The notes under the pieces are model-generated. The model did not search any database, was not told the DNA's origin, and was given only the letters and a program-made list of their open reading frames with translations. The translations under genes were made by a program, and so were the position numbers. This document shows, piece after piece, positions 1-7,184 of a stretch of 7,184 nt of DNA. Position 1 is the first letter of the stretch. Each line of letters starts with the position of its first letter. The stretch is from the IMG/VR virus record IMGVR_UViG_2617270940_000007, positions 1 through 7,184 of that record; one strand, 5' to 3'. The DNA comes from a virus. Lineage: Duplodnaviria; Heunggongvirae; Uroviricota; Caudoviricetes.

Positions 1-65
1 AACCAATATCACTTAAATAAGTGATAGTCTTAATACTAGTTTTTAGACTAGTCATTGGAGAGCAG

Positions 66-431
66 ATGATTGATGTCTTAGGACCGGAGAAACGCAGACG
101 GCGTACTACACAGGAAAAGATCGCTATTGTTCAGCAGAGTTTTGAACCGGGAATGACGGTCTCCCTTGTTGCCCGGCAACACGGTGTGGCAGCCAGCCAG
201 TTATTTCTCTGGCGCAAGCAATACCAGGAGGGAAGTCTTACTGCTGTGGCCGCAGGAGAGCAGGTCGTTCCTGCCTCTGAACTTGCTGCTGCCATGAAGC
301 AGATTAAAGAACTCCAGCGCCTGCTCGGCAAAAAAACGATGGAAAATGAACTCCTTAAAGAAGCCGTTGAATACGGGCGTGCAAAAAAGTGGATAGCGCA
401 CGCGCCCTTATTGCCCGGGGATGGGGAGTAA
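66..431 (+). CDS. insC: IS2 transposase OrfA (InsC), 121 aa, helix-turn-helix DNA-binding subunit
   Basis: ORF-track protein [40 protein letters not shown]... matches IS2 InsC as I recall it; chosen start is the ATG at 66 rather than the ORF-track upstream extension at 21. Confidence 0.9.
383..389 (+). other. Programmed -1 ribosomal frameshift motif A_AAA_AAG of IS2 (orfA to orfB)
   Basis: Heptamer aaaaaag at 383-389 in the insC frame (A-K-K-W) exactly where the insD frame opens; A6G slippery sites are the established mechanism in IS3-family elements. Confidence 0.75.
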
Positions 432-1294
432 GCTTAGTCAGCCGTTGTCTCCGGGTGTCGCGTGCGCAGTTGCACGTAATTCTCAGACGAACCGATGACT
501 GGAAAGATGGTCGCCGCAGCCGTCACTCAGATGATACGGATGTGCTTCTCCGTATACACCATGTTATCGGAGAGCTGCCCACGTATGGTTATCGTCGGGT
601 ATGGGCGCTGCTTCGCAGACAGGCCGAACTTGATGGTATGCCTGCGATCAATGCCAAACGTGTTTACCGGATCATGCGCCAGAATGCGCTGTTGCTTGAG
701 CGAAAACCCGCTGTACCGCCATCGAAACGGGCACATACTGGCAAAGTGGCCGTGAAAGAAAGCAATCAACGATGGTGCTCTGACGGGTTCGAGTTCCGCT
801 GTGATAACGGAGAAAAACTGCGAGTCACGTTCGCGCTGGACTGCTGTGACCGTGAGGCACTGCACTGGGCAGTCACTACGGGCGGCTTCGACAGTGAAAC
901 AGTACAGGACGTAATGCTGGGAGCGGTGGAACGCCGCTTCGGCAACGAGCTTCCGGCGTCTCCAGTAGAGTGGCTGACGGATAATGGTTCATGCTACCGG
1001 GCTAATGAAACACGGCAGTTTGCCCGGATGTTGGGGCTTGAACCGAAGAACACGGCGGTGCGGAGTCCGGAGAGTAACGGCATAGCAGAGAGCTTCGTGA
1101 AAACGATAAAGCGTGACTACATCAGTATCATGCCTAAACCAGACGGGTTAACGGCAGCAAAGAACCTTGCAGAGGCGTTCGAGCATTATAACGAATGGCA
1201 TCCGCATAGTGCACTGGGTTATCGCTCGCCACGGGAATATCTGCGGCAGCAGGCCAGTAATGGGTTAAGTGATAACAGGTGTCTGGAAATATAG
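389..1294 (+). CDS. insD: IS2 transposase OrfB (InsD), DDE catalytic domain; expressed as InsCD fusion by -1 frameshift
   Basis: 301-aa ORF in the -1 frame relative to insC, overlapping its 3' end; GTG start at 389 lies inside the slippery heptamer; stop TAG at 1292-1294 inside the right inverted repeat. Confidence 0.9.
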
Positions 1295-1305
1295 GGGCAA
1301 ATCCA
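1265..1305. repeat. IS2 right terminal inverted repeat (IRR)
   Basis: Terminal ~41 bp ending ...tggaaatataggggcaaatcca; the matching left repeat lies outside the window, so pairing cannot be verified here. Confidence 0.6.
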
Positions 1306-1679
1306 CCTACTGCCATTACCCACACTTTCATCATTTCACGTAAACGAAGAGAAAAGCGCACCTGCCATTACTCCATACACGGAGAAGAACAATCACCAAA
1401 ACGACGGGAACAACCCAGACGAAAACACAGAGAAGAACCACCTCAAGAAGAACGAAACCACATACGCCGGTAGAGAGTACAAACCACCCATTTCACCCAC
1501 AGGAATAGTCGCCGTATTGAGCGTTATCAGAGAGAAGGTTTATGCCCACATAAGAGAGAAAATTCGAGGGAGGTATAAGTGGGAAGGGGAAGAGGGGTAT
1601 CGCTACTTTTTCCGTATAAATTCAAGCCATAGTTTTCGTCCCCCGTAACGTCCCTATCCACCCCTTCGGTCAGCCTTCG

Positions 1680-1830
1680 GGCCATCCAGGGAAAAGGCCA
1701 TGTCCCTTTTCAGGAACGGGAGCGTCGCCGCAGGGAAAAGGCTGGAGGTTTTCAGGGAAACGGTGGGAATCCCGCTGTACGAACCGGGAAAAGGCTGGCT
1801 GCCGGTCGGGAAACGGGTACATCCCGGTAC
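1680..1830. repeat. GC-rich array of ~6 degenerate direct repeats (core GGGAAA(A/C)GG, ~22-bp period); iteron-like or protein-binding array
   Basis: Units cagggaaaaggc (~1687), caggaacggg (~1711), cagggaaaaggc (~1731), cagggaaacgg (~1753), ccgggaaaaggc (~1784), cgggaaacggg (~1807); no credible ORF across it. Confidence 0.5.
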
Positions 1831-2134
1831 AGAGTGAGGGACGACTGCGGGAGCGGTGCGGGAAATCTTCGGGAGTGCGCCTTACTCTTCACTCGCCTGA
1901 AAATCGCGGGGGAGTGTCATTCCCTCTCGTGCAGCTACTGGACTCCAGTCTGCCAGACCATCATCGGGTCTCAAGCGATTTCAGTAGGTTTTCGGGGAGA
2001 AGAAAATTCTGCCCACCAGCCCCGCGGCGCGCGTAGAGCAGAATATCGTAAATACTGGCTCCCGTGTCGTTCCCGGATATTCACTGCCCAGCCTGGCTTT
2101 CCCGACATAAAATCCTTTTTCGCCTTTGTCTTAT

Positions 2135-2170
2135 TGCGATAATAACACCAATAAGTAAACAACATATTTA
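2135..2170 (+). promoter_or_regulatory. Promoter module A: extended -10 (TGcGATAAT) followed by degenerate AAACAA-N-ATTTA operator-like element
   Basis: ttgcgataataacaccaataagtaaacaacatattta aligns with modules D (4651-4686) and E (5135-5170); lies ~30 bp upstream of RBS gagga and ATG 2202. Confidence 0.4.
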
Positions 2171-2201
2171 GACGTTATAGAAACGAAGTGAGGATGAAGA
2201 G

Positions 2202-2418
2202 ATGATTAAGATGCCTGTGACGGTTGAGGTGTGGGGCGTGGATTCCCTGGCTGAGTGTCTGGATGCAGTGGGGCCGGAGTTGTACCGCAAGTTGTGGTCG
2301 TTCGTCCCGCAGAAGGGGAATCGCCCAAAGGGAAGGATATCTGGCATCTGCTGAGTGAAGATGAAAAGCGGGAGCTGGTGGACGCGGTACACAGCGAGTT
2401 CCCGGAGGACGAAGATTA
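2202..2418 (+). pseudogene. Small ORF (~72 aa if repaired) split by an apparent frameshift near 2331-2336; hypothetical protein
   Basis: RBS gagga 8 nt before ATG 2202; frame 0 gives MIKMPVTVEVWGVDSLAECLDAVGPELYRKLWSFVPQKGNRPKG then stops at 2352-2354; the -1 frame continues KDIWHLLSEDEKRELVDAVHSEFPEDED to TAA ~2416-2418. Both halves look protein-like. Below the ORF-track length cutoff. Confidence 0.3.
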
Positions 2419-2510
2419 AGAGTGAGGTCACCAGCACGGTGGCTTTTGTCGCTATTAACCTCCGGGGCAGCGCAGCACCGTAACGATATACTCTGTGGCC
2501 GTTTTCTTAC

Positions 2511-2548
2511 TGGTATTGTTTACGCAATTCAGAAAACAACATGTTTAA
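2511..2548 (+). promoter_or_regulatory. Promoter module B: extended -10 (TGgTATTGT) plus AAACA-aca-TGTTT palindrome in the 5' UTR
   Basis: ctggtattgtttacgcaattcagaaaacaacatgtttaagga; near-identical in layout to module C (2992-3037); immediately precedes RBS aagga and ATG 2559. Confidence 0.5.
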
Positions 2549-2558
2549 GGATTGCTTT

Positions 2559-2888
2559 ATGTTTGCAAATATCGACATCAACCAAATCAAGAAAATGACT
2601 CAAAAAGAGTTTGACCAGTTTTATGAGTTAGAAGGTTGGTCTTCCACGCTGATCAATTCGCGCTGGGTGCTTGAGCTGATGACTCGTGATGATGCTCCTG
2701 CTTTGATTATTTGCGACATGGGTGAAGATGCTGACTTTATGGATATGAGCGAATTTTGTGTGGACACATACAACCGCAGCCAGAAGTACTACTTCACATG
2801 CGATAGCGAGAATGACGTGATTTCTAAGCTCTATCTTCACCTTGTCCAGCATTGGGACGTGCAGGAATTCCTTGAGTTATTCGCGTAA
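2559..2888 (+). CDS. Hypothetical small acidic protein, 109 aa (cassette gene 1)
   Basis: ORF-track 2541..2888; start moved to ATG 2559 because 2541 lies inside the operator palindrome and 2559 has an aagga RBS at suitable spacing; followed by a hairpin at 2898-2920. No recognisable family. Confidence 0.6.
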   Translation: MFANIDINQIKKMTQKEFDQFYELEGWSSTLINSRWVLELMTRDDAPALIICDMGEDADFMDMSEFCVDTYNRSQKYYFTCDSENDVISKLYLHLVQHWDVQEFLELFA

Positions 2889-2897
2889 GCCCAACCA

Positions 2898-2925
2898 AAG
2901 CCAGCACCGCCTGCTGGCTTAACTT
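2898..2925 (+). terminator. Hairpin (aagccagc-accgcct-gctggctt) with weak U-tract; putative terminator of gene 1
   Basis: 8-bp inverted repeat 10 nt after the stop codon; downstream tract ttaacttctc is only moderately T-rich. Confidence 0.4.
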
Positions 2926-2991
2926 CTCTGTAGCCGTAGGGAAGAACCACCTTTAGATAATTCATGTGCCTGAGCAATATGCTTTGTAGCC

Positions 2992-3037
2992 GTTTTTACA
3001 CTGGTATTATTTACGCCATTGAGAAAACAATTTGTTT
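2992..3037 (+). promoter_or_regulatory. Promoter module C: extended -10 (TGgTATTAT) plus AAACAA-t-TTGTTT palindrome in the 5' UTR
   Basis: gccgtttttacactggtattatttacgccattgagaaaacaatttgtttacgg; homologous to module B over ~50 bp; precedes RBS ggag and ATG 3049. Confidence 0.5.
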
Positions 3038-3048
3038 ACGGAGTAGTG

Positions 3049-3360
3049 ATGAATACTTCATTGGTGCTGGGTCTTGCTGAAGGCCAGGAGAGAAAAGAAA
3101 AACCAACCTTAATGGGGCATCTCACATTGCTGGATATCGTAGCGAATGGGACTTCTATCCGTCTGTTTCGTGAAAAAGCCATTACCTTCGACGCGGGCAA
3201 TTTTACGCGCTATGTGATGGTAGTTCGTCGCCGGCGTGGAAGAGGGTGGATGTCGGTCCAGAAAATGTGGCCAGAGGACCAGCTTGAACTGGCGCTGATG
3301 GAAGCTAACCGTGTCGCCCAACAAGAGATCCAACGAGCGTCTGTTCAGGCGGTAGCTTAA
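3049..3360 (+). CDS. Hypothetical protein, 103 aa (cassette gene 2)
   Basis: ORF-track 3019..3360 begins at a TTG inside the operator; ATG 3049 preceded by ggag is the likelier start; Rho-independent terminator follows. No recognisable family. Confidence 0.55.
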   Translation: MNTSLVLGLAEGQERKEKPTLMGHLTLLDIVANGTSIRLFREKAITFDAGNFTRYVMVVRRRRGRGWMSVQKMWPEDQLELALMEANRVAQQEIQRASVQAVA

Positions 3361-3394
3361 ACATGTGCAAGCAGTAGTTAGTCGAATGTACGAC

Positions 3395-3424
3395 AGCCCC
3401 GCCAATCCTTCGGGGCTTTTTTGT
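3395..3424 (+). terminator. Rho-independent terminator (agccccg - loop - cggggct + TTTTTT)
   Basis: GC-rich 7-bp stem with ccttcgg-type loop followed directly by a six-T run, 35 nt after the gene 2 stop. Confidence 0.7.
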
Positions 3425-3449
3425 ATTGTAAGTACTTACTTATGATAAT
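3421..3449 (+). promoter_or_regulatory. Sigma70-like promoter (TTGTAT - 17 bp - GATAAT) with a perfect 12-bp palindrome GTAAGTACTTAC in the spacer
   Basis: -35 TTGTAT at 3421-3426, -10 GATAAT at 3444-3449, spacer 17 bp; palindrome at 3428-3439 overlaps the spacer (operator-like); AT-rich leader then strong RBS aggag 6 nt before ATG 3482. Confidence 0.5.
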
Positions 3450-3481
3450 AAAATTAAAAATTAAACAATAAGGAGAGTGAA

Positions 3482-3877
3482 ATGACCGTTAAACGCGAAA
3501 ATCTGACCCTGGATATGTATTATGCATCAGAGACGGAAAATGGAGACAAAGTTGCAAAAATTACAATTGTGCTACGCGATAATGCCTCCGGCGAAGAAGT
3601 TCACACCAGTACCTTAACTCGCACCGGCGAGGCGACAAAGGGGAAATATTCGGTGCGTTACCAAAGCATCAGTAATGCTTCTGACCCTTTACTGATAAAA
3701 CTGGAAACTCATTTCCGTGGCGCGGATCAGACGTTGTTTGAAAATTTGATGAAAAAGGTCGATACGGTTTATACATCGAGTTTAAATACCAATAGTACCT
3801 GGATGGGACAACACGGTCTGCGAATAATCTCCGGCGAAAAGATCGACACCATTGTCCCTGAAAGCGTATTCGCTTAA
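3482..3877 (+). CDS. Hypothetical protein, 131 aa (cassette gene 3)
   Basis: Strong RBS aggag at 3471-3475, 6 nt before the ATG; own promoter and own terminator; no recognisable family. Confidence 0.65.
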   Translation: MTVKRENLTLDMYYASETENGDKVAKITIVLRDNASGEEVHTSTLTRTGEATKGKYSVRYQSISNASDPLLIKLETHFRGADQTLFENLMKKVDTVYTSSLNTNSTWMGQHGLRIISGEKIDTIVPESVFA

Positions 3878-3886
3878 TCCTCTTTG

Positions 3887-3916
3887 AATGGCGCGTAAAC
3901 CGCGCCATTTTCTTAT
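3887..3916 (+). terminator. Rho-independent terminator (aatggcgcg-taaac-cgcgccatt + T-rich tract)
   Basis: Perfect 9-bp inverted repeat 10 nt after the gene 3 stop, followed by ttttcttatg. Confidence 0.65.
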
Positions 3917-3921
3917 GTCCG

Positions 3922-3936
3922 ATAACAATTTGTTTT
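3922..3936 (+). promoter_or_regulatory. Operator-like palindrome AACAA-t-TTGTT (copy F of the conserved motif) upstream of gene 4
   Basis: gataacaatttgttttctg matches the core palindrome of modules B-E; the -10 context differs (GATAAC abuts the palindrome), so the promoter assignment is less certain. Confidence 0.35.
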
Positions 3937-3994
3937 CTGCCTTATCTGATTTGTGAAAATGATTTCACTGAAGCAACTTAATAAGGAAACCATC

Positions 3995-4369
3995 ATGGGA
4001 CTTGATATATATATCGAGACGCAGCCTAAAAACGATCTGAATAACGAGGCATCCAGAAAGCAGGTTGCTTACTTCCGTAAGTTCAATGCGCTCGTTGGGT
4101 GGATGGAGCGCAACGTAGGTGAAGTCGAAAATTGTGAGCTTTTAGAATTAACGATGAATGACATTTGTTTTCTGAAGGCTCATTTGATGCACATAAACGA
4201 AAGTAATTGCGAAGAGTACTTGCCTACCCAGGAAGGTTCTTTCTTCGGCAGTCAGGAGTACGATGAAGGTTACTGGCATGATGTGGGGGAGTTGAAAGAG
4301 ATTGTGGAAGATCTGATTAAGAACCACGACTTTCACAATAATAGACTGACCTTCTGCGCCTGGTGGTAA
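3995..4369 (+). CDS. Hypothetical acidic protein, 124 aa (cassette gene 4)
   Basis: ORF-track 3953..4369 starts at GTG with no RBS; ATG 3995 has aagga 7 nt upstream; stop TAA overlaps the start of the next small ORF (taaatATG). Confidence 0.55.
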   Translation: MGLDIYIETQPKNDLNNEASRKQVAYFRKFNALVGWMERNVGEVENCELLELTMNDICFLKAHLMHINESNCEEYLPTQEGSFFGSQEYDEGYWHDVGELKEIVEDLIKNHDFHNNRLTFCAWW

Positions 4370-4371
4370 AT

Positions 4372-4515
4372 ATGGGCGATTTCAAGAAACGCCTGAAGGA
4401 GAGAGCCGAGATGGTCAGAAAGCGAAACGCCTCTTCTGTCATAAGATACGCAAGGCAGTTTAGTCGCAACAACAAATCAGTTGAGGAAAAGATCCTTAGC
4501 GTAATCGGGCGATAA
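4372..4515 (+). CDS. Small basic ORF, 47 aa (or 34 aa from internal ATG 4411 with strong RBS aaggagag); possible coupled partner of gene 4
   Basis: MGDFKKRLKERAEMVRKRNASSVIRYARQFSRNNKSVEEKILSVIGR; start overlaps the upstream stop; internal ATG at 4411 has a strong SD at 7-nt spacing; Lys/Arg-rich; followed by hairpin 4521-4544. Below ORF-track cutoff. Confidence 0.3.
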   Translation: MGDFKKRLKERAEMVRKRNASSVIRYARQFSRNNKSVEEKILSVIGR

Positions 4516-4520
4516 TTATT

Positions 4521-4544
4521 AAGGCCACCAGCATTGGTGGTCTT
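4521..4544. repeat. Hairpin repeat copy 1 (aaggccacca-gcat-tggtggtctt) carrying a Chi octamer on the minus strand
   Basis: 10-bp arms with one G:T position, 4-nt loop; flanked by ttaaatgac; near-identical element at 4992-5015 with inverted loop; ccaccagc (complement of Chi GCTGGTGG) at 4525-4532. Confidence 0.6.
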
Positions 4545-4650
4545 AAATGACTTTTAATAACCGAAGGTTAGTTTGAAACCTGGCTATCAACTTCCAGAAC
4601 CTTTCTTGTGTATTCAGCCTGTATTAACTTCTTTTATGTCTTATCTACAC

Positions 4651-4686
4651 TGCGATAATTACACCAACAAGAAAACAATATGTTTA
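4651..4686 (+). promoter_or_regulatory. Promoter module D: extended -10 (TGcGATAAT) plus AAACA-ata-TGTTT palindrome in the 5' UTR
   Basis: tgcgataattacaccaacaagaaaacaatatgtttacgc; homologous to modules A and E; followed by RBS gagga (4693-4697) and ATG 4705. Confidence 0.5.
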
Positions 4687-4704
4687 CGCAGTGAGGATAT
4701 GCTC

Positions 4705-4986
4705 ATGACTGATTTCACCATTACCCCTAAAGCACAAAATGTATTCCTTGAATCATGGCTGGACTTGCCGGAAACAGAACAGCAAGAAATGGATCATGTG
4801 GAATATGACGAGCAGGTAAGCACGCGATTCTTCCACTTTGAGGGCTGCGTTTACGACATTGCCAACTTCATGCGAGATGACCGCTTCCCTGAATGGCACG
4901 CAAGCTATCCACTAAACGCCTTCGCCATGCTGATGATCCGTGTGGATGATTCAGGGGATACCATCGACATCGGTCTGCTCCACTAA
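4705..4986 (+). CDS. Hypothetical small acidic protein, 93 aa (cassette gene 5)
   Basis: ORF-track 4573..4986 would run through the promoter/operator; ATG 4705 lies 7 nt after gagga (ATG 4699 is too close to the SD). Protein MTDFTITPKAQNVFLESWLDLPETEQQEMDHVEYDEQ... is Asp/Glu-rich. No recognisable family. Confidence 0.6.
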   Translation: MTDFTITPKAQNVFLESWLDLPETEQQEMDHVEYDEQVSTRFFHFEGCVYDIANFMRDDRFPEWHASYPLNAFAMLMIRVDDSGDTIDIGLLH

Positions 4987-4991
4987 AGAGT

Positions 4992-5015
4992 AAGGCCACC
5001 AATGCTGGTGGCCTT
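4992..5015. repeat. Hairpin repeat copy 2 (aaggccacca-atgc-tggtggcctt) carrying a Chi octamer on the plus strand
   Basis: Perfect 10-bp arms; loop atgc is the reverse complement of the copy-1 loop gcat; GCTGGTGG at 5004-5011; followed by ttaaatgac as in copy 1. Confidence 0.6.
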
Positions 5016-5116
5016 AAATGACCATCCTGTTTTCTGCAGGCTAAAAACACCAACCTCTTACCTCCAGGCAACCGACAAACCCACCTGTTCCCGTCCGGCT
5101 ACCGCAACTTTCCACT

Positions 5117-5170
5117 TTGACGCCTTATTCGTACAACGATAATTAACACAAACAAGAAAACAATTTGTTA
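5117..5170 (+). promoter_or_regulatory. Promoter module E: TTGACG -35-like, cGATAAT -10, then AAACAA-t-TTGTTA palindrome in the 5' UTR
   Basis: ttgacgccttattcgtacaacgataattaacacaaacaagaaaacaatttgttatttacg; homologous to modules A and D; RBS aagga (5179-5183) 7 nt before ATG 5191. Confidence 0.5.
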
Positions 5171-5190
5171 TTTACGATAAGGAATTAATC

Positions 5191-5673
5191 ATGAATTTTA
5201 TCGCTACTGTAAACGCACCCGCACATGGCAATATCGCTGTAACGTTCTCTGACATTGAAAAACGAGTACTTGGTGCATGGCGCGACAATGAGACGGTAGA
5301 ACTGTCAGCACAAGAAAAATGCATTATTGCACGCGACATCATTGGCAATCGTCGTTACTCGCGGGTATTTGAGAAAGCATATGTGGTAAATTCTGGATTC
5401 GGAACGTTCGTCTTTCCGGTGCGCTCCGGGCGATTCTGCCAGTCCAAGCTGATTGAGTTCGCTACGCAGATTTCTGTCTGGATTAAAACTCAATCGTCGT
5501 TCAAATTTTCCGACGATGAAGCAGTATCGCAGGGGATGCGGATCGCCAACAATGCAATAAAATGCAAAAACATTACGTATGCCGCTGGCGTTGACACATG
5601 GAAACTGTTTTGCGCTAACTTTATGCTGAATGTATACGCAAGCAACCGCATCCACATCCTTGATGGCGTGTAA
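5191..5673 (+). CDS. Hypothetical protein, 160 aa (cassette gene 6)
   Basis: Good RBS, own promoter module, and a hairpin terminator immediately downstream; no recognisable family. Confidence 0.65.
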   Translation: MNFIATVNAPAHGNIAVTFSDIEKRVLGAWRDNETVELSAQEKCIIARDIIGNRRYSRVFEKAYVVNSGFGTFVFPVRSGRFCQSKLIEFATQISVWIKTQSSFKFSDDEAVSQGMRIANNAIKCKNITYAAGVDTWKLFCANFMLNVYASNRIHILDGV

Positions 5674-5676
5674 CTG

Positions 5677-5706
5677 AGAAGAGGGCCAGAAACGGCCCTT
5701 TCTCTA
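5677..5706 (+). terminator. Rho-independent terminator (agggcc-agaaac-ggccct + tttctct)
   Basis: GC-rich stem 4 nt after the stop codon, followed by a T-rich tract. Confidence 0.6.
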
Positions 5707-5716
5707 TAGCCACCAG

Positions 5717-5900
5717 CTGCCGCAGGGAAATTTTCAGAAACGGCGAGGAACGCATTCATGAGCCGAAGGGAAACGACCATGAAATTTTCTGGAAACGGCG
5801 GGGGGCGCCTTTATGTAGAAAACTGAGCGGGAGAAACCCGGAATCGCGCCAGAAATTGCGTAGCGGCGCTGGGGCAGCGCTGGTGGGGTTTCAGCCCCTG
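5717..5900. repeat. Second GC-rich repeat block (GGGAAA / GAAACGG units), homologous to the 1680-1830 array
   Basis: gccgcagggaaa...ttttcagaaacggcg matches gccgcagggaaaaggctggaggttttcagggaaacggtg in array 1, as if with a ~10-bp deletion; shared gggccatccag motif (1677-1687 and ~5892-5902); Chi octamers at both edges (5710-5717 minus strand, 5879-5886 plus strand). Confidence 0.45.
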
Positions 5901-6088
5901 GGCCATCCAGATAGCTTTCGCTATGTGATTATGTGAATCCGTGGGTAAATCACTGTAAGCGCGTACACGTTGCCCAACGTGGCAATCATATGCGAGCGGA
6001 TACAAAACAACACAAAGAGCCGATCCGCGCCGACAAATAAATGCGGATCACATAGCAAGACTAAAAGCCAATGATTAACCATACTCTA

Positions 6089-6109
6089 TAGCGCAATATA
6101 ACGCGTTTT
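6089..6109. repeat. Hairpin (taacgcg-ttttaag-cgcgtta)
   Basis: Perfect 7-bp inverted repeat in an AT-rich intergenic region; member of a local family of GCGC-stem hairpins. Confidence 0.4.
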
Positions 6110-6216
6110 AAGCGCGTTAATGTGTTAAGTAATGGGTATGTACTGACAAGGATATAAAAGCGCGTCTATGGCGTTATTTTGGTGCTTATTTTTATGTTGT
6201 TGGAGCGAGTTAAAGA

Positions 6217-6246
6217 CAATAAAAAACGCGCCAATGATGGCGCGTT
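6217..6246 (-). terminator. Hairpin (aacgcgcc-aatgat-ggcgcgtt) followed by a T-run on the minus strand; second of two tandem minus-strand terminators
   Basis: Perfect 8-bp stem; on the minus strand the stem is followed directly by TTTTTT (plus-strand aaaaaa at 6221-6226). Confidence 0.5.
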
Positions 6247-6265
6247 ATGGTGGGAGTATTGGAAA

Positions 6266-6290
6266 CGAAAAAAGCGCCCATAGTGGGCGC
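6266..6290 (-). terminator. Rho-independent terminator of the 76-aa minus-strand gene (gcgccca-tag-tgggcgc + TTTTTT)
   Basis: Perfect 7-bp stem 6274-6290, followed on the minus strand by six T; lies 7 nt past the stop codon (6297-6299) of the 6297..6527 gene; the same 17-bp palindrome recurs at 6547-6563. Confidence 0.7.
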
Positions 6291-6296
6291 TCGATT

Positions 6297-6527
6297 TTAT
6301 TTGTGTAAACTAATTTTGAATCCCATTTCTACAAACGCTTTTAACATTAAAAATATATCAGCGTCATTCACGTCTGCTTTTTTTCGCTCCTGGTCGTTCA
6401 ATAAGTCAATTTTGCGCGTTGTTTCATTTATAAACTCGACTGCGCGCCCAGCGATCCCAGCGATCCCAGCGATGCGATTAACATAATATTCATTATGGAC
6501 GTTAACGCCAGCGATAAGAACAAACAT
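6297..6527 (-). CDS. Hypothetical small protein, 76 aa, containing an in-frame (IAG)x3 tandem repeat
   Basis: Minus-strand ORF with strong SD aaggag 7 nt before the ATG; bracketed by two identical 17-bp hairpins (6274-6290 and 6547-6563); terminator downstream. No recognisable family. Confidence 0.55.
   Translation of the reverse strand: MFVLIAGVNVHNEYYVNRIAGIAGIAGRAVEFINETTRKIDLLNDQERKKADVNDADIFLMLKAFVEMGFKISLHK
6447..6473. repeat. Perfect 9-bp tandem repeat (cccagcgat)x3 inside the 76-aa gene
   Basis: Three head-to-tail copies; on the coding (minus) strand atcgctggg x3 encodes Ile-Ala-Gly x3, so copy-number change would preserve frame. Confidence 0.8.
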
Positions 6528-6546
6528 GATTAAGCTCCTTAAAACT

Positions 6547-6563
6547 AGCGCCCATAGTGGGCG
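6547..6563. repeat. Second copy of the 17-bp palindrome gcgcccatagtgggcgc, between the two minus-strand genes
   Basis: Identical to 6274-6290; sits between the stop of the upstream minus-strand fragment (6578) and the SD/ATG (6527) of the 76-aa gene. Confidence 0.6.
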
Positions 6564-6577
6564 CTATATCCATCTAA

Positions 6578-6837
6578 TTACGCTTTGAAAGCATCAGCCA
6601 GATAGTTATAAAAATCATTTTTAACGAAGCGATATTGCTGTGATCCGTTTTTCGCTGCACCCATTCCTTTGATTTTTTCGACCAGTCCCAGACGTTCGCA
6701 AAGATTGATAAGCTGGTTGGCTTGAGTGTATCCTGCGTCTAATTTTATTTCGTTGGCTTTTTTCGCTTCATTCATTAAATCGAAAACAGCGCCATTGGTG
6801 AACGTGTCGATCTCGTCGTTAATCATATCGATTAATG
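6578..6837 (-). pseudogene. 3' fragment of a gene truncated at its 5' end by IS1 insertion; hypothetical protein, tentatively phage antirepressor-like C-terminal region
   Basis: Minus-strand frame stays open from the ORF-track Met (6826) up to the IS1 boundary (6837) with no stop, so the ORF runs into the IS; the antirepressor resemblance is an impression from memory only. Confidence 0.45.
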
Positions 6838-6892
6838 GGTGATGCTGCCAACTTACTGATTTAGTGTATGATGGTGTTTTTGAGGTGCTCCA

Positions 6893-7168
6893 GTGGCTTC
6901 TGTTTCTATCAGCTGTCCCTCCTGTTCAGCTACTGACGGGGTGGTGCGTAACGGCAAAAGCACTGCCGGACATCAGCGCTATCTCTGCTCTCATTGCCGT
7001 AAAACATGGCAACTACAGTTCACTTACACCGCCTCTCAGCCCGGTACGCACCAGAAAATCATTGATATGGCCATGAATGGCGTTGGATGCCGGGCAACTG
7101 CCCGCATTATGGGCGTTGGCCTCAACACGATTTTACGTCACTTAAAAAACTCAGGCCGCAGTCGGTAA
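6893..7168 (+). CDS. insA: IS1 InsA (transposition repressor / N-terminal part of the InsAB' transposase), 91 aa
   Basis: [91 protein letters not shown]; GTG start at 6893; zinc-finger-like CxxC...CxxC motif. Confidence 0.92.
7144..7150 (+). other. IS1 A6C -1 frameshift motif (insA to insB', gives InsAB' transposase)
   Basis: aaaaaac near the 3' end of insA, the established IS1 frameshift position; the insB' frame continues beyond the window. Confidence 0.7.
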
Positions 7169-7184
7169 CCTCGCGCATACAACC

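Follow-up and report, generated by a model that had tools for sequence, protein, structure and literature searches.

A terminator-like stem-loop as the probable boundary of exchangeable gene units in SSU5-type phage-plasmids

Introduction

Two near-identical hairpins with mutually inverted loops stand on either side of one small gene in a 7,184-nt stretch of Caudoviricetes DNA (IMG/VR record IMGVR_UViG_2617270940_000007, positions 1 to 7,184; hereafter the window), raising the question of what such a pair does and why it should enclose a gene. An earlier note, made from the letters of the window alone, had proposed that the hairpins may be terminators or palindromes resembling the repetitive extragenic palindromes (REP) of bacterial chromosomes, and that the Chi octamers which they carry on opposite strands could bear on processing by RecBCD. 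Comparison with related loci suggests a stem-loop specific to the SSU5-type phage-plasmids that most likely (probability roughly 0.6) closes small promoter-operator-gene units and works in their sense RNA by terminating or attenuating transcription or by protecting 3' ends, with recombination at the boundaries swapping the units.

Phage-plasmids of the SSU5 type are common in clinical Enterobacteriaceae and carry resistance genes, and the gain and loss of their accessory genes have so far been poorly described. At this locus small genes appear to be held in a reusable frame (promoter/operator, gene and common hairpin) and to be swapped, inserted or lost at the edges of that frame, so that the variable slot, between the 131-aa and 160-aa genes, is a place to seek candidate anti-defence or host-interaction genes. 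What appears to be new here is this hairpin-bounded gene-exchange slot together with a local cluster of non-coding Chi sites.

Results

The two hairpins and their distribution

Only two places in the window match the pattern AAGGCCACCANNNNTGGTGGCCTTAAATGAC, 4521-4551 with one mismatch (the G·T of the stem) and 4992-5022 with none, and no match is expected in shuffled sequence. The features at and between these places are listed here.

3995-4369, plus strand: 124-aa gene (phrog_7971), the first of two genes in the unit that ends in the left hairpin
4372-4515, plus strand: 47-aa basic open reading frame (ORF), the second gene of that unit, CYRAN_109 in the annotation of phage Cyrano
4521-4544, plus strand: left hairpin, aaggccacca-GCAT-tggtggTctt, nine Watson-Crick pairs and one G·U pair, 5 nt after the TAA at 4513-4515
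4545-4551, plus strand: tail AAATGAC of the left copy, which with the last two stem bases makes TTAAATGAC
4552-5022, plus strand: cassette A unit, 471 bp, made up of 5' region, promoter/operator, gene A, right hairpin and tail
4651-4659, plus strand: extended -10-like element TGCGATAAT, a putative promoter element of gene A
4671-4687, plus strand: operator-like palindrome GAAAACAATATGTTTAC, between the gene A promoter and ribosome-binding site
4705-4986, plus strand: gene A, 93 aa, acidic (isoelectric point 4.2), phrog_1845, function unknown
4992-5015, plus strand: right hairpin, aaggccacca-ATGC-tggtggcctt, a perfect 10-bp stem, 5 nt after the gene A TAA (4984-4986)
5016-5022, plus strand: tail AAATGAC of the right copy, conserved

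The description given in the earlier note is accurate: the 24-nt hairpins are each followed by TTAAATGAC, the loops (GCAT on the left and ATGC on the right) are reverse complements, the minus strand has the Chi octamer GCTGGTGG at 4525-4532 and the plus strand has it at 5004-5011, and gene A with its promoter stands between the two copies. Both stems have 10 bp with six G-C pairs directly downstream of stop codons, the left copy being the 3' stem-loop of the two-gene unit (124-aa gene and 47-aa ORF), and folding energies are -17.4 (left) and -20.2 (right) kcal/mol, with z-scores of -3.8 and -3.4. The tail AAATGAC is the right end of a common boundary of about 31 nt, directly after which the sequences of cassettes A, B and C (below) and the right flank diverge. 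The pair was also considered as a 27-nt inverted repeat (I1) that could invert the cassette; the relatives gave no case of gene A in the opposite orientation, and the idea was rejected.

About 770 plasmids of 100-115 kb in PLSDB, most of them typed as non-mobilizable, match the array of small genes in which the hairpins lie, and come from Escherichia, Klebsiella, Enterobacter, Yersinia (including pMT1 of CO92) and Salmonella. Escherichia phage Cyrano matches the array at 98.7%, Salmonella phage SSU5 matches it as well, and the complete relative NZ_CP103696.1 carries tail, capsid, portal, terminase, dnaE, nrdAB and cobT genes. Based on these phage and plasmid matches and this gene set, the window is assigned to the SSU5/pHCM2/pMT1 group of phage-plasmids described previously (PMC7969092), here carrying insertions of the insertion sequences IS2 and IS1.

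A 43-nt query of the hairpin element matched 590 PLSDB records, every one of them in this plasmid family, and 5,426 complete E. coli genomes yielded 449 element places in 238 genomes, none of them on a chromosome; figures for places per record overcount copies because the flipped-loop palindrome matches on both strands. The REP-like proposal, under which the hairpins would be copies of a dispersed host palindrome (REP or bacterial interspersed mosaic element, BIME) located here by chance, has in its favour only their general look, a GC-rich intergenic palindrome 3' of a stop codon, and is already refuted by this distribution, which leaves it virtually no chance. Consistent with that outcome, a search for further copies in the replicon returned a single one in the complete 114-kb plasmid NZ_CP103696.1, and Rfam gave nothing meaningful in the window at E <= 1 and nothing at the gathering score in L002 (loci sampled for comparison are numbered with the prefix L). 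The ubiquitous host repeat that the earlier note had named as the finding that would undo its proposal is therefore not what the element is.

Pairing in the sense-strand RNA

The substitutions found among relatives separate the two strands of the element. In an alignment of 16 distinct variants, 94.9% of cells are standard pairs and two pairs have changed on both sides. Read as plus-strand RNA, the 10-bp stem pairs in 97.5% of cells, including 13 G·U cells, compared with 89.4% when read as minus-strand RNA, where there are no wobbles and 13 A·C mismatches. Approximately eight independent stem changes (ggTcacca, ggccaTca, ggccacTc and tggtggTc, the last of these twice; three in Klebsiella) are all tolerated in the sense RNA only, and one stem position forms a series of G-C in E. 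coli, G·U in L062 and A-U in L189. The restriction of G·U pairs to the sense strand, together with this series, argues for a stem-loop that works in RNA, at the 3' end of the transcript.

The setting of the element points the same way. Across loci the hairpin lies 3-10 nt after stop codons, and each downstream gene has a promoter/operator motif of its own. In SSU5, L059, L186 and L188 gene A and a small gene pointing towards it converge on the hairpin, which in SSU5 and L059 is accompanied by a T-run, and the TCTTTTA that follows it in SSU5 and Buttiauxella gives the arrangement of a bidirectional terminator. From the position 5 nt after the stops, the sense-strand pairing and the convergent relatives with a T-run, the terminator proposal of the earlier note emerges as the best-supported of its readings, held back by the lack of a proper U-tract after these two copies, and we infer a terminating or stabilising activity.

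The convergent small gene that abuts the hairpin differs between relatives: in SSU5 (L184, 5385-5657) the product is helix-turn-helix-like and annotated as 'putative repressor-like', and in the Klebsiella phage and Enterobacter plasmid relatives L186 (1889-2077) and L188 (3118-3306) it is a DUF7706 protein.

Gene A and its attached hairpin

The right hairpin follows gene A closely. It lies within 10 nt of the gene A stop codon in 27 distinct sequences from at least seven genera (Escherichia, Salmonella phage SSU5, Yersinia, Kluyvera, Buttiauxella, Klebsiella and Enterobacter), the sole exception being L187, the most diverged locus, in which another ORF stands 3' of gene A in place of the hairpin. 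The upstream context of gene A varies, with its own promoter in most relatives, translational coupling to a 124/126-aa gene in L023 and L027, and coupling to other genes in L008 and L061, and the hairpin stays attached throughout. In the Escherichia lineage the coupled position is taken by the 47-aa basic ORF, which stands where gene A does in L023 and L027 (loci of a variant group common to Salmonella, Yersinia and Kluyvera) and is followed by a copy of the hairpin, the left element. The right hairpin accordingly appears, from these alignments, to be the ancestral 3' hairpin of gene A, and the left copy would close the preceding two-gene unit in the Escherichia lineage.

Pfam, PADLOC and PDB searches with gene A, with the genes around it and with those of the alternative cassettes brought no informative match, gene A itself having none in any of the three, and an AlphaFold2 model of gene A built without an alignment was unusable (predicted local distance difference test score 48.9). 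RefSeq calls some gene A orthologues 'ABC transporter' (e.g., WP_200146197.1), a name for which Pfam, PADLOC and PDB provide no support.

A slot for exchangeable units

Relatives differ at this position in whether a gene is present and in which gene it is. The slot lies between the 47-aa ORF and the 160-aa gene and has a length of either 36 or 507 nt across loci. The comparison of related loci that the earlier note had suggested gave a positive answer, with the indel falling exactly at the repeat: L002 equals the window minus exactly 4552-5022 (471 bp), and it and 13 other sampled loci represent the empty state, a single hairpin and TTAAATGAC followed by CATCCTG... The sole hairpin in empty-slot L002 and L051 is the left copy. 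The twin state with cassette A was found in 90 PLSDB records (at least 80% coverage of the 828-nt query 4363-5190), and the empty slot, by subtraction, in roughly 77.

At least four genes other than A use the slot, all of them ending in the hairpin and TTAAATGAC. Cassette B (196 aa) stands behind the left hairpin in L003, cassette C (310 aa), likewise behind that hairpin, is found in L026 and, in tandem with A, in L008, and gene D (232 aa, L016) and gene E (L035) have the same hairpin variant at their end, directly before the same right flank; in L016 gene D replaces the unit of the 124-aa gene and 47-aa ORF. Homology breaks on the left within a few nucleotides of the stem and on the right directly after ...GAC or at the stem edge, and in SSU5-like relatives the insertions of convergent genes begin at the very edge of the stem. 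The states of the slot are spread over the flank haplotypes, and clusterings based on the left and right flanks disagree, a pattern that indicates repeated recombination around the slot.

Cassettes B and C share near-identical 101-nt 5' regions (promoter and ribosome-binding region; L003, 4190-4290) up to the ATG, after which follow unrelated AT-rich genes: one gene has been exchanged exactly for another while the expression frame around it stayed conserved. PLSDB has the B/C frame in 10 records only, seven of them Escherichia albertii plasmids of approximately 62 kb.

Several genes that are unrelated to each other share one terminal sequence of about 31 nt (stem-loop and TTAAATGAC), and recombination or replication slippage within this sequence and within the common promoter region would insert, delete or replace whole units and would generate occupied, empty and alternative slots. 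We infer such a recombination mechanism for the exchange of cassettes.

A second twin pair of hairpins in the window, AGCGCCCATAGTGGGCGCT at 6273-6291 and 6547-6565, is identical with the same loop orientation, contains no Chi and brackets a minus-strand 76-aa gene (6297-6527, phrog_1585); twin hairpins are therefore usual in this part of the replicon, whether or not they hold Chi. L002 has one more gene here (67 aa), with AGCTCCTT(T)AAA repeats on both sides, between the 76-aa gene and the second AGCGCCCATAGTGGGCGCT hairpin.

A metagenome scan with a right-flank 17-mer returned 120 stretches, of which only about 9 were of this family and the rest chance matches, and a scan of genome contigs with the 160-aa protein returned 6 loci only.

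Inversion of the loop

The loops vary in a manner unlike the stems. The hairpin of gene A has the loop ATGC almost everywhere and GCAT in L061, and that of the 47-aa ORF has GCAT in most loci, CTGC in L006, L007, L014 and L165, and GCAG in L024. Where a loop changes in this way all four bases become their reverse complement, and neither the stem nor the asymmetric tail moves. Replacement of the whole loop with stem and tail fixed is not what four point mutations would produce, and carries the signature of template switching. Inversion by replication template switching has been described before, chiefly in loops of 4 nt (Monttinen and Loytynoja 2022, PMC8794818), and the 4-nt loop of a perfect palindrome could be inverted in place by such an event during replication, which is the probable source of the loop flips here. 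The likeness to the hairpins of that study (PMC8794818) lies in the reverse complementation of a 4-nt loop within an unchanged stem, here recurring at equivalent sites; those hairpins are in ribosomal RNA and microRNA, whereas here a Chi octamer is moved to the other strand. The locus is a clean natural case in which hairpin loops have inverted repeatedly, perhaps with consequences for function through the strand of Chi.

Chi sites and alternative readings

Six Chi sites are present in the window against 0.2 expected.

2013-2020, minus strand: Chi, non-coding, in the local Chi cluster
2374-2381, plus strand: Chi, inside the first small gene (frameshifted here)
4525-4532, minus strand: Chi, made of left arm CCACCA and loop GC, lost in relatives with ccaTcaGC
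5004-5011, plus strand: Chi, made of loop GC and right arm TGGTGG
5710-5717, minus strand: Chi, non-coding, directly 3' of the terminator that closes the 160-aa gene, left-hand site of a Chi(-)...Chi(+) pair
5879-5886, plus strand: Chi, non-coding, the right member of that pair, around iteron-like repeats, in several relatives

The octamer is exact (5'-GCTGGTGG-3') and the replicon resides in RecBCD hosts (Escherichia and other enterobacteria). Its opposite orientation in the two hairpins exists because the loop is flipped: the arms CCACCA and TGGTGG each supply six of the eight bases, the GC of the loop completes the octamer with one arm or the other, and the strand of Chi follows the loop. 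The -,+,-,+,-,+ order of the six sites was considered as a set of designed protective pairs and set aside, as relatives do not keep the alternation.

It could be argued that the hairpins are kept for Chi, as control points at which RecBCD stops degrading phage-plasmid DNA that is linear or broken and RecA is loaded, with the boundaries serving as recombination hotspots for cassette exchange and the loop flip switching direction. Beyond the excess of sites in the window, NZ_CP103696.1 (L052-L054) contains 24 Chi over its 114 kb, a density of 1 per 4.75 kb, which places Chi first of 168 octamers of the same composition (mean 2.8), and a comparison of positions with gene tables in this plasmid puts 19 of 19 sites outside the array inside genes and four of the five within the array in non-coding DNA. 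Among diverged relatives the array stays dense in Chi, with 7 sites over 4.2 kb in L186, 8 over 5.2 kb in L187 and 7 over 3 kb in L023, even as its individual sites come and go, but the other non-coding Chi are conserved no better than neighbouring bases, site 5710 being kept in 6 of 10 relatives. At the hairpins, the Chi(+) of the right copy is retained in all but two of 27 distinct sequences across at least seven genera, and GC stands beside the stem in every loop variant. RNA pairing alone, however, explains the conservation of UGGUGG, given that this arm loses a pair with every G-to-A or U-to-C change, whereas the other arm stays paired through changes of C to U and of A to G; the constancy of the loop GC is seen over only approximately three independent loop changes; and the Chi(-) of the left copy is often lost, destroyed as ccaTcaGC or ccaGcaGC in about 10 of 26 sampled loci. 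Two or three array terminators bear Chi in some relatives, yet the strand of Chi varies at one and the same site (L061; L006 versus L024), and the Chi-free twin pair brackets a gene likewise. Chi-rich phages that depend on RecBCD, P1 and LLS, are known (PMC12315714; PMC3784561), but the orientations in the cluster here are mixed and not conserved, against the one-directional terminal cluster of LLS. The evidence for selection on Chi itself in the hairpin is weak. A designed pair of opposite Chi sites is contradicted by the differing strand among relatives, by the frequent loss of the left Chi and by the Chi-free pair; a part for RecBCD, left to it by the Chi-rich array, is unlikely, and so is the retention of the hairpins for their Chi. 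More doubtful again is a combination in which terminator stems have been shaped to carry Chi, unit boundaries doubling as sites of RecBCD entry control and as recombination hotspots and the loop forming a two-state switch. Loop inversion would then change the direction from which RecBCD turns from nuclease to recombinase, and a flipped loop would interrupt the direct-repeat homology of neighbouring hairpins and stabilise the cassette between them. If this were true, the array would, with its other non-coding Chi sites, be a built-in RecBCD-dependent exchange site between co-resident phage-plasmids, and Chi active within the stems would link transcription terminators to recombination hotspots.

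A role for the 24-bp palindrome as DNA, either as the site of a dimeric protein (of operator or partition type) or as the crossover of a site-specific recombinase in integron-like units, is a long shot. Its perfect two-fold symmetry, with 10-bp arms about a 4-bp spacer, would suit a protein that reads the arms alone and to which the loop flip is irrelevant, but the substitutions keep pairing in sense-strand RNA only. The same 3' element is found on at least five unrelated genes with sharp homology boundaries on both sides; the cassettes nevertheless have their own promoters, the palindrome has neither a GTTRRRY/RYYYAAC core nor extrahelical bases, and insertions in SSU5-like relatives break at the stem edge and not at one fixed crossover point. 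A site-specific integrase is encoded elsewhere in the plasmid family, though no recombinase gene is present in or beside the array and the nearest annotated integrase is approximately 52 kb away.

The preferred reading, a 3' stem-loop that works in RNA and bounds exchangeable units, has its own difficulties. The plus-strand tail is CUUAAAUGAC, with no canonical U-tract directly 3' of either stem, and a terminator scan flagged the left copy only through the T-run ACTTTTA starting 5 nt downstream and the right copy on the minus strand only; efficient intrinsic termination is therefore doubtful, and the element may be a weak terminator or stabiliser only. The asymmetry in wobble pairs, from approximately eight independent changes, could partly reflect a strand-biased rate of C-to-T mutation. 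A near-invariant Chi in the right copy (25 of 27 distinct sequences) beside a varying left arm would be expected from a G/U-rich RNA arm, but would equally be expected from selection for Chi. Lastly, empty L002 keeps a whole left-type hairpin, and a deletion from the twin state would leave only the 10-nt CTTAAATGAC for the crossover, which is too short to fit ordinary RecA-dependent recombination.

Of the roles first raised, that of terminator is supported, that of REP-like repeat is refuted, and the paired opposite Chi sites are explained as a by-product of loop inversion. The Chi density of NZ_CP103696.1 matches that of the E. coli chromosome.

Comparison with known systems

The closest functional analogue is found in the promoter-early stem-loop (PeSL) cassettes of T4-type phages, whose stem-loop and promoter motifs both end and start transcription and mediate modular shuffling (Arbiol et al. 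2010, PMC2839356; PMC4122927). In both systems small genes whose function is unknown stand in a variable region between repeated motifs, a terminator-like stem-loop and a sigma-70-type promoter; where close relatives differ by an indel or a replacement, the motifs mark its limits; and the stems contain G·T pairs. The present system is not a member of that class. PeSL is one compact motif of about 50-60 nt, whereas here the stem-loop is separated from the next promoter by about 100-150 bp (100-125 nt for the two copies, from 4544 to the -10 element at 4651-4659 on the left and from 5015 to 5138-5143 on the right), the promoters have an operator-like palindrome, the stem-loop has Chi, and the host is a temperate siphovirus-type phage-plasmid, in contrast to a T4-type myovirus. 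Mini-circles and terminator activity have been shown for PeSL, whereas the present system is known from sequence alone.

Phage morons are independent promoter-gene-terminator units inserted between phage genes, a concept attributed to Juhala et al. 2000 and Hendrix et al. The units described here resemble them in having their own promoter and 3' hairpin, in being present or absent between relatives, and in carrying an accessory gene of unknown function; the flanks of morons are usually unrelated, whereas here cargo genes are swapped within near-identical 5' and 3' flanks. With intrinsic terminators the hairpins share a GC-rich stem-loop placed shortly 3' of the stop codon, pairing at the RNA level and, in SSU5 and Buttiauxella, a T-run and convergent genes, and differ in that both window copies lack a proper sense-strand U-tract (CUUAAAUGAC).

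Resemblance to integron attC sites is limited to unrelated genes that each end in a common imperfect palindrome and to array cassettes that are present or absent. The element here is only 24-31 nt long, its units have their own promoters, and AAGGCCACCA-N4-TGGTGGCCTT is a perfect stem without the RYYYAAC...GTTRRRY cores or extrahelical bases of attC; no integrase was found in the window or within 8 kb in L001, and no integron integrase or attI is nearby. The hairpins thus have the stem and the sense-strand pairing of terminators and the defining features of neither REP/BIME nor attC.

LLS (a lambdoid phage) and P1 are Chi-rich and rely on host RecBCD (Zheng et al. 2025, PMC12315714; Bobay et al. 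2013, PMC3784561), and the present plasmids are like them in the abundance of Chi, far above octamers of the same composition, and in its local clustering. In LLS the sites lie at one genome end, with 20 of 23 in one direction (PMC12315714), whereas here they occupy an internal non-coding array in mixed orientations, two or three of them inside terminator stems.

The surrounding array and replicon

Between IS2 and IS1 the window holds an array of small plus-strand genes, most of them with an extended -10-like element (reading TGCGATAAT or TGGTATTAT) and an operator-like palindrome, and with a hairpin after each small gene. Five to six units have common promoter/operator repeats and end in hairpins, and repeat families D1-D3 and D6 are common to the gene A promoter region and other units. 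The operator-like palindrome GAWAACAANNTGTTW has six matches in the window where none is expected.

1 to about 1311: IS2, inserted in the long non-coding region upstream of the array
2426-2444, plus strand: related hairpin ggtcacc-agcac-ggtggct followed by TTTTG, a true U-tract, the terminator of the first unit (repeat D16)
2532-2546, 3023-3037, 3921-3937, 4671-4685 and 5156-5170: GAWAACAANNTGTTW sites beside the -10 elements of array promoters
about 6838 to the window end at 7184: IS1, which truncates the minus-strand gene 6578-6826

The version of the 2426-2444 hairpin in L002, ggccaccagcacggtggc, has a Chi on the minus strand. About 12 sites resembling GAWAACAANNTGTTW are also found upstream of genes throughout the 114-kb NZ_CP103696.1, a distribution that suggests a plasmid-wide regulon of some repressor. 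The array proteins belong to no Pfam or PADLOC family, and most have PHROG matches, all of unknown function. Cumulative GC skew tracks gene orientation and gives no origin signal, so that the orientation of Chi cannot be related to the direction of replication.

A frameshift from the loss of 1 nt near 2308 leaves the first small gene of the window (2202-2419) as two ORFs, 2202-2354 and 2255-2419; in L002 this gene is intact as a 71-aa version. The gene truncated by IS1 (6578-6826, minus strand), whose product matches positions 135-216 only of phrog_1513, is intact in L001, the closest plasmid.

Iteron-like repeats (CAGGGAAAMGG and GGGAAACGGC, approximately 22 to 50 nt apart) flank the array at 1687-1820 and 5723-5860. 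The stretch 3' of the 160-aa gene is conserved non-coding DNA across genera, usually lying between a Chi(-) and a Chi(+) 124-170 bp apart, and it may serve as an origin or in partition or packaging. At 5036-5125, downstream of the right hairpin and ahead of the next promoter, there are two to three copies of a 30-nt periodic repeat (CAGGCTA...CCAACCTCTT...), and the same repeat is present in three tandem copies at 672-761 of L002, in the A/C-rich non-coding region of approximately 1.6 kb upstream of the array.

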